IMG/VR virus record: IMGVR_UViG_3300033076_000117 | Location: 204 to 64,203 of that record | Source: a virus | Taxonomy: Duplodnaviria; Caudoviricetes | DNA length: 64,000 bases | Strand: one strand, 5' to 3' | Shown here: in pieces, positions 10,405 to 54,790 of the stretch | How positions within the stretch are numbered: the stretch's first letter is position 1 | Layout of the letters: the number at the start of each line of letters is the position of its first letter | Made by a program: the position numbers and the translations under genes | Notes under the pieces: generated by a model | Databases searched by the model: none | Told to the model about the DNA's origin: nothing | The model's input: only the letters and a program-made list of their open reading frames with translations

Positions 10405-10434
10405 TTACCTGATAAATACTACATTATCAGGTAA
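10405..10434 (+). promoter_or_regulatory. Late promoter embedded in an RBS-sequestering hairpin
   Basis: TTACCTGATAA / TTATCAGGTAA perfect 11-bp inverted repeat; ATAAATA at 10412-10418; AGGT in the 3' arm; ATG at 10440. Confidence 0.7.
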
Positions 10435-38186: not shown

Positions 38187-40460
38187 ATGACAAACTCACC
38201 CGAAATTGAAAGCATTATTGAGCAAGCAATTGTTTGTGCTAAAGAACGCAAGCACGAATATGTAACAGTTGAACACTTGCTACATGCATTGATTACACAT
38301 ACTCCATTCAAAAAGTGTTTAGACAGTTTTGGTGTAGAAGCTGAATTGATGGCACAAGAAGTGGCTGCATATCTCGACAGCCTACACGCTATTGAAGCAC
38401 AAGATAAATCTGTTGAGGTTCAACCTCGCAAAACAAACGCACTTGAAAGAACAATGAACCGTAGCGTGACGCAGGTTCTATTCACTGGTCGTAGACAAGT
38501 TACAACAATCGACTTGTATCTTTCTATCGCAAGCGAAGGTAACAGTCATGCACATTACTTCCTCTTGAAGTATGGCGTCAACAAACAAGAATTTGTACAG
38601 CACTGGCAAAAGACTTACAAGGGTGCTGAATACACAGCTAAACTTACAGACGGTCAAGCTGATGAAATCCTTGAAGAATACACAACTAACCTCAGCGAAC
38701 TTGCACGACAAGGTAAACTTGAGCCATTGATTGGTCGTAGTAAAGAACTTGATGAAATCGTTAATGTTCTCGCTAAACGCTATAAAGCAAACGTGTTGAT
38801 GGTTGGTGATCCAGGTGTAGGTAAGACTGCAATTGCTGAAGGTCTTGCTCAAGTTATCTTGGATGGCAGTGCTCCTGAATTCATTCATGGCTATGACGTA
38901 TATAGCCTCGAAGTTGCAGGCTTGCTTGCAGGTAGCAAGTATCGAGGTGACTTTGAAGAAAAGGTCAAACTTGTCATTGATGCATTGAATTCTAAAAAGA
39001 AAGCAATCTTGTTCATTGACGAAGCACACACTATGAAGGGTTCTGGTAGCTCTACAGGTGGTAGTATCGACTTTGCGAATATGATTAAGCCCGCAATTAC
39101 TAAGGGTACACTGAAAGTTATTGCAAGTACAACATGGGAAGAATTCTACGAGTCCTTCGAAAAGGATCGTGCATTGATGCGTAGATTCTATAAAGTCTCT
39201 ATTGACGAACCAAGTCAAGAATCTACTATTCGTATTCTCAAGGGTTTGAGTTCACGCCTAAATGAATTCCACGAAGTAGAGATTACAGACGAAGCAATCA
39301 ATGCCGCAGTTGAAAGCTCTGCACGTTATATTCACGACCGTAAAAATCCTGACAAGAGTATTGACTTGTTGGATGCGGCATGCGCCCGTCAGAAAGTTGA
39401 TGGCAAAAAAGGCGTTCAGATTGATAAAGATATGATTTATCAACAAGTTGAACGTTTTACAGGAGTTCCAGCTGACAAACTTAATGGTGACAGCATGGAT
39501 CGTATCCAAACATTAGAAGTTAACGTTAAAGGTAAGTTGTATGGTCAGGATGAGACTGTAGATCAGGTTCTTGAACGTGTTTATGTCAGTTTCGCTGGTA
39601 TCGGTAACGAGAATAAGCCTACTGCTAGTTTCTTGTTCTTGGGACCAACAGGTACAGGTAAAACAGAACTGGCTAAGTTGTTGAGTAAAAATCTCGACAT
39701 GCCATTGCTCAAGTATGATATGTCAGAATATGGCGAAAAGCATTCTGTATCTAGTTTGATCGGTCCGCCTCCTGGTTATGTTGGCTTTAATGACAGTCAA
39801 GTTAGCGGTGGGCGCCTAATCAACGACTTGAGCAAGAATCCTCACAGCATCTTGTTGTTCGATGAAGTTGAGAAAGCACACCCTGATATTTTCAACATCT
39901 TCTTACAGATGTTAGATGAAGGTCGTATCACTGGTAGTAACGGTAAAGAAGTCAATTGTAAGAACACAATCATTATCATGACTAGTAACTTGGGCGCAAG
40001 TGATAGTGAACGTAATCAGATTGGTTTCGGCAGTCAAGAAAAGACGGGTGAAGATGAAAAGGCATTGCGTGAATTCTTCAAGCCTGAATTCCGTAATCGT
40101 TTGGATCTTGTTTGTAAGTTCAAGAAACTTGATATGCTTGCAATCAAGAAGATTGTTGTCAAATTCGCTGAGGACTTGAAGAAGTCATTAGTTGACAAAC
40201 ACAACATTACTCTTGTGTTGTCTGAGCCTGTTATCGAACACTTGGCAGAAGAAGGTTACGATAAGAAGATGGGCGCACGTCCTCTAGCACGTAAGATTGA
40301 CGAGTTGGTTCGTGTGCCACTATCTAAGAAGATTCTGTTTGAGCGCATCAAAAATAGTGTAATCACTGCTAAGATGGGTGAGAGTGGTATCGAATTTGAA
40401 GTAGCACAAAAACTAACAGCATCGGTGGGTGAAAATGGGATTATTGAAGTCAGTCAATGA
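38187..40460 (+). CDS. clpA: ClpA-type AAA+ unfoldase
   Basis: N-domain HEYVTVEHLL; Walker A GDPGVGKT and GPTGTGKT; DEAH and DEVEKAH; IGF loop (RNQIGFG); MGARPL. Confidence 0.9.
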   Translation: MTNSPEIESIIEQAIVCAKERKHEYVTVEHLLHALITHTPFKKCLDSFGVEAELMAQEVAAYLDSLHAIEAQDKSVEVQPRKTNALERTMNRSVTQVLFTGRRQVTTIDLYLSIASEGNSHAHYFLLKYGVNKQEFVQHWQKTYKGAEYTAKLTDGQADEILEEYTTNLSELARQGKLEPLIGRSKELDEIVNVLAKRYKANVLMVGDPGVGKTAIAEGLAQVILDGSAPEFIHGYDVYSLEVAGLLAGSKYRGDFEEKVKLVIDALNSKKKAILFIDEAHTMKGSGSSTGGSIDFANMIKPAITKGTLKVIASTTWEEFYESFEKDRALMRRFYKVSIDEPSQESTIRILKGLSSRLNEFHEVEITDEAINAAVESSARYIHDRKNPDKSIDLLDAACARQKVDGKKGVQIDKDMIYQQVERFTGVPADKLNGDSMDRIQTLEVNVKGKLYGQDETVDQVLERVYVSFAGIGNENKPTASFLFLGPTGTGKTELAKLLSKNLDMPLLKYDMSEYGEKHSVSSLIGPPPGYVGFNDSQVSGGRLINDLSKNPHSILLFDEVEKAHPDIFNIFLQMLDEGRITGSNGKEVNCKNTIIIMTSNLGASDSERNQIGFGSQEKTGEDEKALREFFKPEFRNRLDLVCKFKKLDMLAIKKIVVKFAEDLKKSLVDKHNITLVLSEPVIEHLAEEGYDKKMGARPLARKIDELVRVPLSKKILFERIKNSVITAKMGESGIEFEVAQKLTASVGENGIIEVSQ

Positions 40461-48146: not shown

Positions 48147-48191
48147 TTAGTATAGTATTTGATAAATACAATATTAGTTTGGAATTTTACT

Positions 48192-48809
48192 ATGCGCTTT
48201 AAAGAAATATCAGAAAGTACCGTAGCAGGAGCAATTGCTCCTGTAGAATCCGCTGGTTTTGTGAAAATGAAAACCCGTGGTCCAGTAGTTTACGGTGACA
48301 CAACACCTCAAGACCTTGTAAAGAAAAAGAAAAAGGGCCAGTACTCTAATTCTATCGCTGAGGGTAAACAAGTTGACGAAGCAAAACTTGAAGAAGAAGA
48401 TATTATCGTTATTCCAGGTCACAGTGGAAAGCGTAAAACAGGTTTTGTACCAAGAGGTCAAAGTCGTGTAGACCACGAAGTTGAAATGGCACGTAGCGAC
48501 TTGCTAGCAACACTAAAAAATGCTAAAGCATTGTATGAACTACTAGAGCATCGTAGCGAAGAAGAAGGTCTAGAAGGCTGGGTACAAGAAAAGATTATCA
48601 AAGCAAGCGACTACCTAAACGCTGTAAAAGAATACTATGACGAAAAGAGTGTTCAACAAGAAGGTGCCAAAGTAGACCGCATGGTAAAGCACATTGAAAA
48701 GTCTGAACGTAAACTAGGTAAGTCAAAAGACGAAGCAGAAAACATCGCATGGGCAACAGCTAACAAGCGTGGCATGTTAGACAACAAGAACAAGAAAAAG
48801 GGCAAATAA
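48192..48809 (+). CDS. Putative internal head protein
   Basis: Late promoter 48162-48168; start MRFKEISE; internal IAE, VDE, LEE sites. Confidence 0.55.
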   Translation: MRFKEISESTVAGAIAPVESAGFVKMKTRGPVVYGDTTPQDLVKKKKKGQYSNSIAEGKQVDEAKLEEEDIIVIPGHSGKRKTGFVPRGQSRVDHEVEMARSDLLATLKNAKALYELLEHRSEEEGLEGWVQEKIIKASDYLNAVKEYYDEKSVQQEGAKVDRMVKHIEKSERKLGKSKDEAENIAWATANKRGMLDNKNKKKGK

Positions 48810-50848
48810 TGAGCAACATCCTAAGAGGTTTGACCCTAAACGAAGGTTTGTACGATGAACTCAAAGCAGAAGGTGATCGTAAGATAGCCGCTATCAAAGC
48901 CAACCCAGAAGCATACAGCAAACAGTATGGTATTCCATTAGACCATAAACACTTCATTGGTGCTGTATTAGTTGCTATGGATCGTGAAGAACAACGTGAA
49001 AAACAAATCAAACGTGACGCTGATAACAAAGCACGTTATGATGCAAGTAGACAGCAACAACTAGCACAAGATAAAGAAAACATTGACCAATTGAAAGCAC
49101 AATTGGCACAATTAGAAGCACAATTTGATCCTAGTTATGAATACAGTGATGACTATACATTCTGGAATAAACAGAAAGATATCGGTGGTCAGATTCGTGC
49201 GTTGAAAAAGCGTATCAGTGATGTTGAAGGTCAACAACTTGATGAACTAAGTCCACAAACACTAGCAAGTTACAAAAAGAAAGCTGGTGCTGATGCTACT
49301 GCCGCAGACAAGCGTGGCGACTTTGCTAGAGGTAACAAACGTATGAGTGGTATCATGCAGGCTACTCGTAAAGAATTTGACAACGATACCAAACGATCTA
49401 ACGCAAGGTCACAAATCAAGACAGATGACAACTTACGAGCATACTACGCACAGCGCAAACAAGAAAAGCAGGATGTTGAAGAAGTTAGCCGTCGTGGAAT
49501 ACTAAAAGGCCTTGCGGCAGCAGGTGCATCAGCTATTGCTCCAGCATTTGCCAAAGGTGGCGGCGGAGGTGGCCGAGGAGGCGGTGGTGGCAGAGCATCA
49601 GGTGGTGGGAGAACAACTGTAGGTCGTGGACCACAAAGTGCATCACATGTTAGTGACGCACCACATAGCACATTTCACCCAGGCTCTCCGTTCTATCCAG
49701 TAGTAGGAGGTCACGGTGGTGGCACACATACTGCTAATGATGCTGACAAGAAAGAATACATCAAGTTCTTAACAAGTTATGCTAATGCTATTCGTGCAGG
49801 TAAGATGACTCCTGAAATGCGTAAGTGGTTGACACAGCACCCTGAAGTCATTGAGGACTTGAAGCGTGGCAAGTATGGACTAACTATGGGTCAACTAAAC
49901 GCAGACTTGGTAGACATTGAATCTCGCAAGAATTATCACTTGATGCGTGAAGGTTCTGACGAACCTAATCTTTCAAAAATGTCAGTTGATGAACTCAAAC
50001 AACATATTGAGGAATTGACCAACTCCGCATCAGAATTCTTTGGTATAGAACGATCATATATCAATATGGATATTGCTAAGGCTAAGGCAATGCTACGCAG
50101 AAAATTAAAGCAAGGTGTGGCGGAAGACGATGCCGGCGATGTTGAACAGCGTATGATTGCTAAAATAGAAAAAGAAAAACAACGTTTAGCAAAACTAAAG
50201 CAGACTGATCCAGAAGCATACAAGCGTGAAATGGCTAAGCGTGAAGCAGACCGAGCAAGAATGCCAGCAGTATCTACATTTGAAGAACAAAATGTAGCGG
50301 AAGATAAGGTAAGTCAGTTACACAAAGCGTGGGACAAGGCATTAAAGACAAAGCCAGTTAGTCCACAACAGCAACAGCGTAACCGTGAGCGTTGGGCACA
50401 GCGTCAAGCAGAAAAAGAACAAGGAAGCAAAGATATGAAAATCGATGAACTAGCAATCAATGAAGATTGGCAAAAAGTCAACAAGAAGGATAAGACTGAT
50501 GGTATGAGTAGCAAAGCAGTCAAAGCATATCGCCGTGAGAATCCAGGTTCTAAATTAAAGACTGCGGTAACTACAAAACCCAGTAAACTAAAGAAAGGTT
50601 CTAAAGCCGCGAAGCGCCGCAAATCTTTCTGCGCTAGAATGAGTGGCATGAAGAAAGCACATGCTAATGCTAAGACTAAACGAGATCCAGATAGCCCAAT
50701 CAATAAGGCATTGCGCCGTTGGAACTGTGAGTCCATTGAGCAAATGGAACAGTTAGTAATGATTGCTGAACAGAAAATTGCTGAAGCAAAAAATGCTAAA
50801 CAACAGGCTGCTATAGCAATTGCTAAGAAAGCCGCAAAAAAGGGTTAA
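48809..50848 (+). CDS. Modular putative internal head polyprotein with internal Tat-like signal and DUF6321-like C-terminal module
   Basis: Modules after LNE, LDE, VEE, MRE, VAE, INE, IAE; VSRRGILKGLAAAGASAIAPAFA; RRKSFCARM...ALRRWNC. Confidence 0.55.
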   Translation: MSNILRGLTLNEGLYDELKAEGDRKIAAIKANPEAYSKQYGIPLDHKHFIGAVLVAMDREEQREKQIKRDADNKARYDASRQQQLAQDKENIDQLKAQLAQLEAQFDPSYEYSDDYTFWNKQKDIGGQIRALKKRISDVEGQQLDELSPQTLASYKKKAGADATAADKRGDFARGNKRMSGIMQATRKEFDNDTKRSNARSQIKTDDNLRAYYAQRKQEKQDVEEVSRRGILKGLAAAGASAIAPAFAKGGGGGGRGGGGGRASGGGRTTVGRGPQSASHVSDAPHSTFHPGSPFYPVVGGHGGGTHTANDADKKEYIKFLTSYANAIRAGKMTPEMRKWLTQHPEVIEDLKRGKYGLTMGQLNADLVDIESRKNYHLMREGSDEPNLSKMSVDELKQHIEELTNSASEFFGIERSYINMDIAKAKAMLRRKLKQGVAEDDAGDVEQRMIAKIEKEKQRLAKLKQTDPEAYKREMAKREADRARMPAVSTFEEQNVAEDKVSQLHKAWDKALKTKPVSPQQQQRNRERWAQRQAEKEQGSKDMKIDELAINEDWQKVNKKDKTDGMSSKAVKAYRRENPGSKLKTAVTTKPSKLKKGSKAAKRRKSFCARMSGMKKAHANAKTKRDPDSPINKALRRWNCESIEQMEQLVMIAEQKIAEAKNAKQQAAIAIAKKAAKKG

Positions 50849-50897
50849 ATATGAAAGATTATGATTTCTATTGGAACCTAAAAGGATACCCTCGATA

Positions 50898-51338
50898 ATG
50901 TTGTCAGATAACTTAAAAGTATTATTAGCAAGTACTCAATCATTTGCTATCAAAACACAGAACTTTCACTGGAATGTAGAAGGTAGTAACTTTCCACAGT
51001 ATCATGAATTCTTTGACACAATGTATGGTGATGTATCAGATACTATCGACAAGATTGCTGAGTATATCCGTATTCTTGGTCATTACACACCAGGTAGTCT
51101 AACTCGCTATAGTGAGTTGTCTATCATTCAGGATCAAACAAAAATCCCACGTGCTGAATTGATGTTTGTAGAATCTTATCAAGACTGTGAAGCAATGATT
51201 CAGTTAGTCACTAGTATGTTTGACGAAGCTACTAACGAACGTCAGCAAGGTATTGCTAACTATATGGCAGAACTACAAGATTTATATGCTAAGAAAGCAT
51301 GGTTCATTCGCAGTATTCTAAAGAAAGAACGTGAATGA
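50898..51338 (+). CDS. dps: Dps/ferritin-like protein
   Basis: NFHWNVEG..F..YHEFF, D.IAEYIR.LG, W.IRS; start at MLSDN. Confidence 0.88.
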   Translation: MLSDNLKVLLASTQSFAIKTQNFHWNVEGSNFPQYHEFFDTMYGDVSDTIDKIAEYIRILGHYTPGSLTRYSELSIIQDQTKIPRAELMFVESYQDCEAMIQLVTSMFDEATNERQQGIANYMAELQDLYAKKAWFIRSILKKERE

Positions 51339-51889
51339 GAGATATCATAGAGTTACTTGAAGATAAGTCAAAGCCGAAAGACGTTGAAATTATCCAGTTG
51401 AACTTCATTGAGCGTGAGGTTTCTCCTGTTATGAGTAAAGAAACTCTAGACTTACACTATGGTAAGTTAGCACACGGTTACGCAGAACGATATAACAAGA
51501 ACGAAGGCGACAAAGACTTCAACTATGCAGGGGTATTCTTGCATAACATGTTGTTCACTCAGTATAGAGAAGTAAGAAACAACAATAAGCCAAACGGTCC
51601 TATGGAAGGTTTCATCAACAAACATTTTAGTTCATATGATGATATGAAAACTAAGTTCGAAGAAGAAGCAATGAAGATTCAAGGCAGTGGTTGGATATAC
51701 TTAGCAGAAGATGGATCAATCAAAACAATCAAGAACCACGAAGTACGCAACGACATACTATTATTGATTGACTGGTGGGAACATGCTTTTATATTAGACT
51801 ATGGCAGTGATAAGAAAAAGTATTTAAAAGAACAGTGGAAGATCATAAACTGGAACGTTATAAATACTCGATGGGGTAAGAGTTTATGA
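51335..51889 (+). CDS. sod: Fe/Mn superoxide dismutase with CTS-like N-terminus
   Basis: LHY, LHN, QGSGW, IDWWEHA..LDY keep the four metal ligands (H, H, D, H). Confidence 0.85.
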   Translation: MRDIIELLEDKSKPKDVEIIQLNFIEREVSPVMSKETLDLHYGKLAHGYAERYNKNEGDKDFNYAGVFLHNMLFTQYREVRNNNKPNGPMEGFINKHFSSYDDMKTKFEEEAMKIQGSGWIYLAEDGSIKTIKNHEVRNDILLLIDWWEHAFILDYGSDKKKYLKEQWKIINWNVINTRWGKSL

Positions 51890-53331
51890 GAGCAAATGAG
51901 TTCATCACTGAAATATTTCAACCTGGTAAGAAGAACTGGGAATGGCTACGCCGTGGTAGTGAAGAGGCAACCGCACAATTTAAAGTTGGCGATAGAGAAT
52001 ATCGTTGGGATGCATTTACTCAAAGAGCAAATGATAAAAAGTGGGAAGTACAATTTCGTTTGATACGACAACGTACTGATCCTGATGGATTAGACTTGTT
52101 TGGAAAAACAGGTACAGGTAATTCAGCAGAAGTATTATCTACAGCAGTAGATATCACACGTTCATTTATCAAAGAATACGGTCTAGACAAAGTAGAAGAA
52201 ATTACGTTCAACGCAAAAGAAGATAGTCGTATTGGCTTATACGCTAAGATGATAAAGCGTTTATTACCTGATTGGGACTTGTATCAAAAATACAGCAAAG
52301 ACATGGGAATGGAATATCATTTGACTGACCGCCGAGCATATGATAAGCCTGAAAACAAACTAAGCGAAGAAGCTAAAGCCGCCAAGTATAACGGCTTGAT
52401 GATGAAGTACGCATTCAATGACAATGCTTTGATACTAAAAGCATTTACAAAAGAGGGCCCAATAGCTTACGTTAAGTTTGTTAAAGAAGATAAAGAATTA
52501 TATCCACAGGATTTATGGACACATGATGACTATCGCAATCGTGGTATTGCTAAGTCAATGTATGATTACCTAAAGAGTGAAGGTTATGTAATCAATAGAA
52601 GTCATGACCAAACTAAAGCTGGTGCAGGATTCTGGGATAAACATCGCGGTGAAGATGCTTATGTTTGGGAAGAAGAAGTCATTGATGAAATGCCACTACC
52701 AGCTGATTGGGACCCTCAACAGTTTCATCAACCAAGCACAAGTTTCAAATCAAGATTACAGTACGCATTAGACCGTGCGGCAAAGTTAGGTACAGGTTCA
52801 AGTCGTGTTGCTACTACAATCGAATATCAAGGTCGTCCTACTGTATTGAAGATTGCTAAGAATCAAAAAGGTCTAGCACAGAATTCAGTAGAAGCAAGTA
52901 TATTAGATGATGGATATGCTAGTCAGATGGGCATATTAATTCCGTTAATTGACTACGATGAACAGAATCGTGAACCAAGTTGGATTCACACTGAGATGGC
53001 TACAAAAGCAAGTGATAAGAAACTTGCTAATATGATGGGTGTTGATAATCTCAGTCAACTTGTAAACATGGCATGGGCTATTACAGGTAAAAAGAAATAT
53101 CTAGGAACATACCAACAGTATGTTGATTACCTACAACAAAAAGGTAAAACTGACCAAGAAATTGAAACAGCAAGTGACTACGCAAACAAACTAGCAGAGT
53201 TGAATAGTTCATTCGATGTTGAGTTGGGCGACTTTACTAGAGCGGCTAACTGGGGTATATATCAAGGGCAACCAGTTATCATTGATGTTGGTTTCAACAG
53301 CAACGTATTAAATCAATATTATAAGAGATGA
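51886..53331 (+). CDS. Modular protein: unknown module + GNAT acetyltransferase + protein-kinase-like domain
   Basis: MRANEFITE; YRNRGIAKSMY (acetyl-CoA motif A); LGTGSSR, VLKIAK, GDFTRAANWG, IIDVG. Confidence 0.65.
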   Translation: MRANEFITEIFQPGKKNWEWLRRGSEEATAQFKVGDREYRWDAFTQRANDKKWEVQFRLIRQRTDPDGLDLFGKTGTGNSAEVLSTAVDITRSFIKEYGLDKVEEITFNAKEDSRIGLYAKMIKRLLPDWDLYQKYSKDMGMEYHLTDRRAYDKPENKLSEEAKAAKYNGLMMKYAFNDNALILKAFTKEGPIAYVKFVKEDKELYPQDLWTHDDYRNRGIAKSMYDYLKSEGYVINRSHDQTKAGAGFWDKHRGEDAYVWEEEVIDEMPLPADWDPQQFHQPSTSFKSRLQYALDRAAKLGTGSSRVATTIEYQGRPTVLKIAKNQKGLAQNSVEASILDDGYASQMGILIPLIDYDEQNREPSWIHTEMATKASDKKLANMMGVDNLSQLVNMAWAITGKKKYLGTYQQYVDYLQQKGKTDQEIETASDYANKLAELNSSFDVELGDFTRAANWGIYQGQPVIIDVGFNSNVLNQYYKR

Positions 53332-53972
53332 GAGCCACAGAATTTATAAGTGAAGATATATCACGAAGAGGCTTTCTAGGGGGTCTTGCTGGTATGGCTG
53401 CAGGTTCAGCAATGGGCAAGCAAATGCCACAACAAAAACCCGTTGAAGAACCACCAAACTTACTAAGCAATAATCCAGCTAACGAAACTACATTATTGAA
53501 AACTGCTAAGAAGGCAGGCATGAAGGGTCCTGAACTAGCACAGTTCATGGCACAAACAAAGCATGAATCTTGGGACTTTGAACGACTAAAAGAAAAGCCA
53601 CAACCTGGTGTCAAAGATTATTACAATAAGAAATACGACATTCGTTATAGCCCAAGAACAGCAAAGATATTAGGGAACAAACATCCAGGTGATGGTCACA
53701 AATATCATGGTCGTGGTTTTATACAATTGACAGGTCGTGATAACTATCGTATGGCAGGACAAGCATTGGGCATTGATTTGTTAAATCATCCTGAATTAGC
53801 TAGTAAGCCAGACGTTGCCGCACAAATTGCTGTATGGTATTGGAATACAAGAGTAAAGCCTAGCATACATAATTTTGCTGATACAAGGGCTGTCACACAA
53901 AAGATCAATCCAGCTGCCAAAGGCTTAGAAAACAGACACGAAAATTTTAAAGACTACATGAGAATAATATGA
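53328..53972 (+). CDS. GH19 lysozyme with CTS-like leader followed by Tat signal
   Basis: MRATEFISE|DISRRGFLGGLAGMAAGSAMG; AQFMAQTKHES, YHGRGFIQLTGRDNY, WYW, T.KIN. Confidence 0.85.
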   Translation: MRATEFISEDISRRGFLGGLAGMAAGSAMGKQMPQQKPVEEPPNLLSNNPANETTLLKTAKKAGMKGPELAQFMAQTKHESWDFERLKEKPQPGVKDYYNKKYDIRYSPRTAKILGNKHPGDGHKYHGRGFIQLTGRDNYRMAGQALGIDLLNHPELASKPDVAAQIAVWYWNTRVKPSIHNFADTRAVTQKINPAAKGLENRHENFKDYMRII

Positions 53973-54790
53973 AAAGAATAATAACAATACTCACACTGAC
54001 ACTAGCTACATTATCAGCAAACGCATGGACACAACGTGCTCCGTTTCCAGTTCAGCAATGTCAAAAACATGCCCCTTATGGCTTCCCTAATACAACTAAT
54101 GTACAGCCATTATGCCAGCAAGCATATCTAGTAGGATACGATGCATCTGCTAAATTACCTAAATTCGTAACCTATGAACTACTACCTCAAAACGCTCTCG
54201 GCTGCTTCCCTCGTACTAATGCTTTCGTTGCTAATCAATATGTTCAGAATGGCCCCACTCCCGACGATTACACAGGTACTGGATTCGATAAAGGACATGC
54301 CGCACCCGACGGTGACTTATCATGGGATCAACAAGTAGAGTATGAATCATTCTTGATGACTAACATGTTCCCTCAACGTGGTTCATTGAATCGTGGTATT
54401 TGGAAACTATTAGAAACAAGTGTACGTGGTTGGGCAGTGCAAAAGAATCAAAGCTATACAATTTACGTTGGCGCACTATACAATGGTACTGAGAAGAAGA
54501 TCGGTAAGGGAGTTATTGTACCTACAGGATATTACAAGATTGTAATCAACAATGTAACTAAAGAAGTCGCTGGTTGGGGATTCCCGCACGTTGATCCTTA
54601 TCCTAACTTAGGAAATGACTTGACTAAGTTTCGTGTTCCTCTAGCACAGATTCAACAAGCCGCAGGAGTACAATATGCATTCCCTCAAGGTGCAGTTGAA
54701 CTACAGCCTGGAAAAGAATGGACTGTCGATTTTGGAGCACTCACAAACGCAAAGCGCACTAAATGTGGCGCAAACGCATCAGCAGATTGA
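53969..54790 (+). CDS. DNA/RNA non-specific endonuclease (NucA/EndA family) with Sec signal peptide
   Basis: MKRIITILTLTLATLSANA; DKGHAAP, SFLMTNMFPQ...LNRGIW..LE...R, VPTGYYKIV. Confidence 0.9.
   Translation: MKRIITILTLTLATLSANAWTQRAPFPVQQCQKHAPYGFPNTTNVQPLCQQAYLVGYDASAKLPKFVTYELLPQNALGCFPRTNAFVANQYVQNGPTPDDYTGTGFDKGHAAPDGDLSWDQQVEYESFLMTNMFPQRGSLNRGIWKLLETSVRGWAVQKNQSYTIYVGALYNGTEKKIGKGVIVPTGYYKIVINNVTKEVAGWGFPHVDPYPNLGNDLTKFRVPLAQIQQAAGVQYAFPQGAVELQPGKEWTVDFGALTNAKRTKCGANASAD

Follow-up and report, generated by a model that had tools for sequence, protein, structure and literature searches.

A twin-arginine-like signal inside a modular protein of a giant T4-related marine phage and its possible unmasking by prohead processing

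The window analyzed here, 64,000 nucleotides (nt) that make up nearly all of the 64.2-kb IMG/VR record IMGVR_UViG_3300033076_000117 (CheckV completeness 18%), comes from an uncultured giant T4-related marine phage and encodes a 679-amino-acid (aa) modular protein, P0001, in whose interior lies a segment resembling the signal peptides of the twin-arginine translocation (Tat) pathway. The segment opens a 156-aa cassette (aa 226-381) that is found in 11 distinct phage proteins, always internally, and it directly follows a putative prohead-protease site. At a probability of about 45%, we take P0001 to be a packaged cargo polyprotein that is cut at hydrophobic-x-Glu sites, which would free a Tat-signalled 156-aa module for export by the next host.

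The internal signal and the cassette that it opens

Residues 222-268 of P0001 read DVEE-VSRRGILKGLAAAGASAIAPAFA-KGGGGGGRGGGGGRASGGG, and the feature under study, at 49472-49760, spans aa 222-317. The arginine pair (RR) occupies aa 228-229 of 679 (49490-49495) within the stretch S-R-R-G-I-L-K, which matches the twin-arginine consensus S/T-R-R-x-F-L-K in all respects but one, the replacement of Phe by Ile. An h-region (hydrophobic region) of 15 charge-free residues, GLAAAGASAIAPAFA, with a mean Kyte-Doolittle value of 1.49, comes next and leads to A-F-A/K at 49544-49555 (here and below, a slash marks a predicted cleavage point). Residues 234-248 form the only charge-free hydrophobic segment of at least 14 residues in P0001. 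The original prediction had described a twin-Arg motif, an h-region and an A-x-A site at aa ~222-248, with a Gly/Arg-rich tract behind them, and the letters match this description exactly; the Glu cleavage site that it placed at VEE is an interpretation of those letters, not an observation, and is treated here as putative. The signal is internal rather than at the N terminus of P0001. An internal translation start at V226 was ruled out: the codon is GTT, with no in-frame ATG, GTG or TTG nearby and no plausible ribosome-binding site.

The frequency of such segments was assessed with a strict Tat-like pattern, consisting of xRR, then x[FILVM][LVIMF], at least 10 uncharged residues and a small-x-small site. 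The plus-strand open reading frames (ORFs) of the window (16,920 aa) contain this pattern twice, compared with a mean of 0.0075 in 2000 shuffles. The second occurrence lies in a GH19 protein encoded at 53328-53972, so the earlier claim that the same arrangement appears in two unrelated genes, and not by chance, is borne out. Enrichment over shuffled sequences, which had been proposed as a check, was also found among relatives. The related set comprised 125 loci with 356,513 aa of long frames, more than 100 of the loci having been gathered through the 17-mer of the linker described below; it contains nine Tat-like patterns versus 0.69 in shuffles. All nine stand just behind a Glu, located 2-4 residues before the RR, as opposed to 18.8% of all RR dipeptides.

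The cassette has a constant order, with the RR signal followed by a basic Gly-rich tract (55-69 aa) that contains APHSTFHPGSPFYP and by a 70-aa helical domain. Its surroundings are not constant: the flanks of the 11 proteins are unrelated and include a cytidylyltransferase-like N terminus (P0004), a GH19 domain (P0005) and long multi-module proteins, and the position of the RR ranges from aa 135 to 1083. BLAST matches delimit the cassette at aa 218-226 and 379-381 of P0001, that is, at V-E-E/V and M-R-E/G, and past the downstream limit the relatives run on into (E)GVAE linkers.

Within the cassette, the RR is kept in 11 of 11 variants despite codon changes (CGT CGT, CGT AGA and CGC AGA). In all variants 12-16 uncharged residues follow x-F/I-L-K, with P0005 having Gly for that Lys, and the consensus Lys is the only charge within the h-regions except for two extra charges in P0049. 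Small residues are retained at positions -3 and -1, and the Ala-Lys-Gly junction (A248 and K249 in P0001) is invariant in the family alignment. The h-region and the cleavage (c-) region together show a mean identity of only 52%, compared with 82% for the cargo domain. Because composition and charge are held while the sequence of the h-region drifts, the segment evolves as signal peptides do. The TatP pattern (PMC1182353) fits eight of the 11 variants.

The Gly-rich tract is 31-43% Gly across variants, has one or two acidic residues and is net basic. Residues A284, P285, S287, F289, P291, G292, S293 and P297 of the motif inside it are invariant in alignment A1. The conservation of APHSTFHPGSPFYP within an otherwise disordered tract raises the possibility that it binds a protein of the host envelope. 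An AlphaFold2 (AF2) model of the cassette is poor, with a predicted local distance difference test (pLDDT) score of 52 overall and four predicted helices in aa 310-379 at ~65-70. The helical domain has no Pfam match, a wide fold search of the PDB found nothing at Z ≥5, and the ESM Atlas had no match above 0.81. Free-standing versions of the cassette are absent among shorter proteins, where three matches proved to be truncated ORFs, and a HMMER scan of 1.84 billion representatives found no cellular or free-standing homologue, its 10 matches being phage polyproteins or low-complexity sequences.

Three classes of cargo stand behind the signal in the related set: the cassette, a GH19 lysozyme and a small helical module. 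GH19 and its signal come directly after a leader in the window and in three other loci (L003, L024 and L042), whereas in L005 they are internal, lying behind a 150-aa module and L-E-E/. The small helical cargo, seen with a signal in L106, has GVAE linkers on both sides. The L005 gene (4938-6035) joins the leader MRANEFITE, the 150-aa module, the Tat-like signal and GH19 in one frame. At 51886-53972 of the window, a 481-aa GNAT protein begins with that leader and module, and GH19 has a leader of its own. The two arrangements differ by a clean fusion or fission at a Glu site. A GH19 domain downstream of the internal signal was also considered for P0005 and ruled out; there, GH19 is upstream of the signal.

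A second signal-like class was observed behind E-linkers. It lacks RR and mostly takes the form E/[GD]W[KR]x, followed by a 14-20-residue uncharged Ala/Gly stretch and A/[QNK]. Sites of this class are found in L003 (aa 537), L097 (aa 145 and 407), L070 (aa 331), L092 (aa 251), L105 (aa 613), L123 (aa 569) and L054 (aa 93), with the site at L097 aa 145 starting GLGSK instead of [GD]W[KR]x. These segments may be Sec-type signals or membrane-active peptides that are unmasked in the same manner. A further protein, P0056 (88 aa), begins with an N-terminal Sec-type signal ending in AYA and continues with KGGGGGRGGGGGGRSS, so that its mature start resembles that of the cassette; this match is weak and of low complexity (E 9e-4).

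Glu sites, module exchange and the protease

A Glu lies 2-4 residues before the RR in all 11 cassette variants, and the residue at P3 of the putative site is V or L in nine of the 11, in keeping with cleavage by T4 gp21 after L/I-x-E (PMC9026906). Similar Glu-bearing linkers are abundant throughout the family: 39 of the 56 family proteins contain GVAE, with 97 copies in all, a 78-fold excess over expectation. The linker is also conserved as DNA, since QGVAEG is encoded as CAA GGT GTG GCG GAA GGC in 12 of 16 cases from the window and related loci, a codon choice that seems unusual at a genomic G+C content of ~40%. The linker 17-mer is present in at least 120 IMG/VR stretches, often several times per gene (loci including L001, L003-L005 and L009-L128). 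Because it is conserved at the nucleotide level and widespread, the linker is, at least in part, also a DNA-level, in-frame junction for module exchange. The sites upstream of the cassette have noncanonical DNA, GAT GTT GAA GAA in the window and TTA GAC GAA in L003, and hydrophobic-x-Glu is kept in both.

Modules have clearly been shuffled with respect to the signal. Residues 222-315 of P0005 match regions downstream of the cassette in L005, L001, L003 and P0001, and aa 172-254 of P0006 match a region of L003 that is downstream of the signal. The occurrence of modules both upstream and downstream of the signal favors modules that act separately after release, and a variable module order is a poor fit with export of everything C-terminal to an uncut internal signal.

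At the N terminus, the pattern MS[NSK]I..G[LI]..(N/T)E opens ~29 of 48 homologues that otherwise differ in length and architecture. In P0001 this leader is MSNILRGLTLNE, and we infer from the pattern that it acts in capsid targeting. In T4, gp21 cleaves after L/I-x-E, and capsid-targeting sequences of 10-19 residues load diverse, even foreign, proteins for delivery to the host (PMC9026906, PMC3012670). A protease of this S77 type is encoded by the related Vibrio jumbo phage MG592671 (80.5 bits) and by the near-complete linker-bearing contigs G005 and G007 (84.8 and 92.5 bits), and the tail sheaths of the two S77-encoding near-complete contigs are 41-59% identical to that of the window. Genes for TatA or TatC were not found in five related phage records, in searches whose controls responded; thus, any export would rely on the host translocase.

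A proposed path for the cassette and competing explanations

We propose the following path. The leader would steer P0001 into the prohead, where an S77 gp21-type protease would cut after Glu in the hydrophobic-x-Glu linkers and free separate modules, one of them aa 226-381. The cut at V-E-E/V226 would make the twin-arginine signal the new N terminus of the cassette. The module would then be ejected with the DNA into the cytoplasm of the next host, whose TatABC would export it post-translationally; indeed, Tat suits an injected module because it works post-translationally. Removal of the 23-residue signal by signal peptidase I would leave a periplasmic protein of ~133 aa, composed of the Gly tract and the 70-aa helical domain. 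Our guess is that this domain interferes with the envelope or with the entry of competing phages. A more general proposal, which we offer tentatively, is that giant T4-related phages give some of the proteins that they deliver in the virion two successive addresses, a capsid leader and then, on selected modules, a host Tat signal unmasked by the protease, and that the basic Gly/His/Arg tract and helical domain act in the envelope within minutes, for example by blocking the entry of rival DNA in an HxsA-like manner.

If this is true, it would be the first example in which a phage uses an export pathway of its host to send injected proteins on to the periplasm, and the first export signal hidden until a capsid protease exposes it. 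It would carry the T4 internal-protein model beyond anti-defence factors of the cytoplasm to cargo aimed at the envelope. Tat would be seen to accept substrates made outside the cell, and a possible design principle would emerge for bringing proteins into the periplasm with phage particles. Our literature searches found no paper joining twin-arginine signals to capsid targeting, prohead proteases or ejection proteins in this way.

Several findings weigh against the proposed path. On the side of the signal, Pfam TAT_signal (PF10518) scores 19.0 bits on aa 226-242, just under its cut-off of 22.7, and TIGR01409 scores 15.3 bits on the fragment from V226, just under its cut-off of 16.7. The RRGIL of the window fails the TatP default RR.[FGAVML][LITMVF] because of the Ile (PMC1182353). 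The proposed cut would leave an n-region (the N-terminal part of the signal) of only 2-4 residues, in many cases acidic. Such an n-region is atypical of Tat signals, which have long ones and a mean length of 37 residues (PMC1182353). The W-K/R segments behind other E-linkers are a sibling class that hints at a more general membrane-directed role. On the side of processing, neither the 64-kb record (18% complete) nor any of four cassette-bearing contigs tested contains PF03420 (S77, T4 gp21). The role of the linker as a DNA-level junction weakens the argument from Glu alone, as the Glu may be a by-product of recombination. In addition, no cultured phage has the cassette. The original prediction that a head protease releases a Tat-exported module is thus sustained in part: the cassette limits, the conservation of Glu and P3 and the S77 protease of relatives speak for it, while the sub-threshold profile scores, the short n-region, RRGIL and the lack of the protease on the record itself do not.

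The same sub-threshold profile scores would suit a membrane-association or insertion element that is not a Tat substrate. It would be a weakly hydrophobic Ala/Gly helix with a positive flank, by which the released or ejected module is held at the inner membrane, perhaps close to the point of DNA entry, with the RR serving only as positive-inside charge. This element would also accommodate the many charge-free Ala/Gly segments behind E-linkers in related polyproteins that carry W-K/R-x rather than RR. We nevertheless regard it as unlikely. Every cassette and GH19 copy keeps the RR, K never taking the place of R despite the codon changes, and the flank of the RR is close to S/T-RR-x-F-L-K. Moreover, a stable transmembrane helix would be expected to be longer and more hydrophobic than the uncharged stretch of 12-16 residues (mean Kyte-Doolittle value 1.05-1.63), and small residues at -3 and -1 together with an invariant Ala-Lys junction would be needless in an anchor.

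Somewhat less likely still is that the signal acts in the producing cell, where Tat would engage the uncut internal signal as a loop, or another protease would free it, for a late periplasmic role such as lysis timing or superinfection exclusion. Functional internal twin-arginine signals exist in actinobacterial Rieske and other dual Sec-Tat proteins (PMC3471235, PMC5449189); those known signals, however, follow Sec-inserted transmembrane helices, and P0001 has no other hydrophobic segment. The GH19 neighbor, with 9-12 residues before its RR, could be an ordinary Tat-exported lysin, and the packaging of P0001 in the virion is, for its part, only inferred. Against action in the producing cell stand the modules whose position relative to the signal, upstream or downstream, differs between proteins, and the conserved leaders and hydrophobic-x-Glu linkers, which match prohead processing.

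It is improbable that the signal is an evolutionary relic, captured with a secreted-protein gene at a GVAE DNA junction and functionless in its internal position: the nucleotide-conserved, widespread linker, the shuffled modules and the free-standing Sec-type signal and Gly tract of P0056 (though that match is weak) agree with such a history, but the signal features have been kept while the cargo diverged to 49% identity and the h-region drifted, which indicates continued selection, the same layout is seen with three different cargos, and neither the 1.84 billion representatives nor shorter proteins yielded a free-standing or cellular homologue of the cassette.

Genomic setting and comparison with known systems

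The features of P0001 and its neighborhood are collected in Table 1. DUF6321, which is common among cyanophage and pelagiphage genomes, is the only known domain detected in P0001; no peptidase or other known effector domain was found.

Table 1. Coordinates of P0001, its parts and two neighboring elements in the window
Feature	Position	Strand	Basis
Candidate late promoter GATAAATAC	48161..48170	+	Upstream of the gene at 48192, head of the operon containing P0001
P0001 gene, 679-aa modular protein	48809..50848	+	ORF list and translation
N-terminal leader MSNILRGLTLNE, aa 1-12, ending L-N-E; candidate capsid-targeting sequence	48809..48844	+	Pattern common to ~29/48 homologues
Widely distributed module, aa 138-195	49220..49393	+	phrog_26930 match; BLAST, >40 proteins, position varies
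V223-E224-E225, putative prohead-protease site (P3 Val, P1 Glu) and upstream limit of cassette	49475..49483	+	Starts of BLAST high-scoring segment pairs (HSPs) for the cassette
Tat-signal-like segment, aa 226-248: VS-RR-GILK, h-region GLAAAGASAIAP, AFA	49484..49552	+	PF10518, TIGR01409, family alignment
Basic Gly-rich disordered tract, aa 249-309	49553..49735	+	Composition; AF2 pLDDT <50
Short motif APHSTFHPGSPFYP, aa 284-297, inside Gly tract	49658..49699	+	Conserved in alignment A1
Conserved helical cargo domain of cassette, aa 310-379	49736..49945	+	82% mean pairwise identity across variants
M379-R380-E381, downstream limit of cassette and putative cut site	49943..49951	+	HSPs end at aa 379-381
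Canonical QGVAED linker, aa 435-440, CAA GGT GTG GCG GAA GAC	50111..50128	+	Codons as in related linkers
C-terminal DUF6321 module, aa 560-638	50486..50722	+	Pfam PF19846, 42.9 bits
GH19 protein, leader MRATEFISE then directly DISRRGFLGGLAGMAAGSAMG/K	53328..53972	+	Pfam GH19, 62 bits; TIGR01409, 17.9 > 16.7

Among the products of the window are a tail sheath of 1192 aa, tube and adaptor proteins, and a family-B DNA polymerase. This polymerase shares 42-48% identity with those of three jumbo myoviruses of 350-490 kb (Atu_ph07, XaC1 and Vibrio phage 2.275.O). A megablast search with 24 kb of the window gave no match in phage genomes. The P0001 gene sits in a plus-strand run encoding multi-module proteins and small enzymes, whose members include a deaminase fusion, a Dps/ferritin-like protein, an Fe/Mn superoxide dismutase, a GNAT fusion, GH19 and an NS-type endonuclease. 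The Dps/ferritin-like protein, the dismutase and the NS-type non-specific endonuclease, encoded at 50871-51889 and 53969-54790, are an enzyme set unusual for a phage. Just upstream of this cargo island, at 38187-40460, is the gene for a 757-aa ClpA/ClpB-like double AAA+ protein (phrog_4871, 788 bits).

The ATG of P0001 abuts the TAA of the preceding gene, which starts at 48192. ATAAATA occurs 17 times in the window, with 10 of the 17 copies no more than 60 nt upstream of the starts of plus-strand ORFs, structural genes included. With three copies versus 5.25 expected, the window shows no enrichment of the exact T4 late motif TATAAATA, and a canonical T4 late promoter was ruled out for this reason, only the variant [GT]ATAAATAC preceding genes. 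This variant is found at 10411, 16004, 17896, 19204, 22158, 35577, 46100, 48161 and 51860, no more than 60 nt before the starts of many plus-strand genes, structural as well as cargo, and is probably the late promoter of this phage. The P0001 gene has this promoter-like motif in common with structural genes; its expression timing is thus consistent with packaged cargo.

Comparison with HxsA of the HXS anti-phage system (PMC13128918), which combines a signal with a basic His/Ser repeat tract and is proposed to be periplasmic, yields an analogy only. Relatives of the cassette have GHASSGGHASS, and [HR]xS is found 36 times, versus 13.1 expected, over 12 copies of the related Gly tracts (for example, in L001, L002, L005 and P0053). 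The tract of the window has Arg in place of His, with two [HR]xS versus 0.88 expected (p = 0.21). NCBIfam gave no Hxs match at E values up to 1, and no radical S-adenosylmethionine (rSAM) partners were seen. With no family match and weak repeat enrichment, an HxsA-like function was rejected.

Bacterial Tat signals (PF10518, TIGR01409) share with P0001 the SRRGILK stretch, a weak Ala/Gly h-region, A-x-A and a Lys after the site (PMC1182353). The P0001 segment differs from them in being 226 residues into the protein, phage-encoded and without a cellular homologue, and in the 2-4-residue n-region that the cut would leave. The dual Sec-Tat proteins (Rieske; PMC3471235, PMC5449189) likewise have a functional internal twin-arginine motif. 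There, however, Sec-inserted transmembrane helices come before the motif and a cofactor domain comes after it, whereas P0001 has neither an upstream hydrophobic helix nor a cofactor domain.

In overall construction, P0001 resembles the polyvalent proteins of phages and conjugative elements (Iyer et al. 2017, PMC5512222). These too string many modules into one long chain and are predicted to move with the DNA and to be split into separate effectors. P0001 differs from these in its small modules, its fixed GVAE linker and the lack of a detected embedded autoprotease. The paper on polyvalent proteins makes no mention of signal peptides, transmembrane segments or twin-arginine motifs (PMC5512222).

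The T4 internal proteins share further traits with the system described here, which belongs to a T4-related phage, has S77 proteases among its relatives and lies in a cluster of enzyme genes behind a promoter-like motif common to structural genes. T4 internal proteins are not known to have a Tat or Sec signal, and the literature searches brought up none that does. As in the P0001 family, the T4 proteins IPI, IPII, IPIII and Alt, which gp21 processes and which leave the head together with the DNA, have short conserved leaders that end in hydrophobic-x-Glu and are carried by unrelated proteins (PMC9026906, PMC3012670). The T4 proteins, however, are single modules cut once near the N terminus, Alt being cut on the C-terminal side as well, whereas P0001 combines many modules, internal linkers and one candidate export signal in a single chain.

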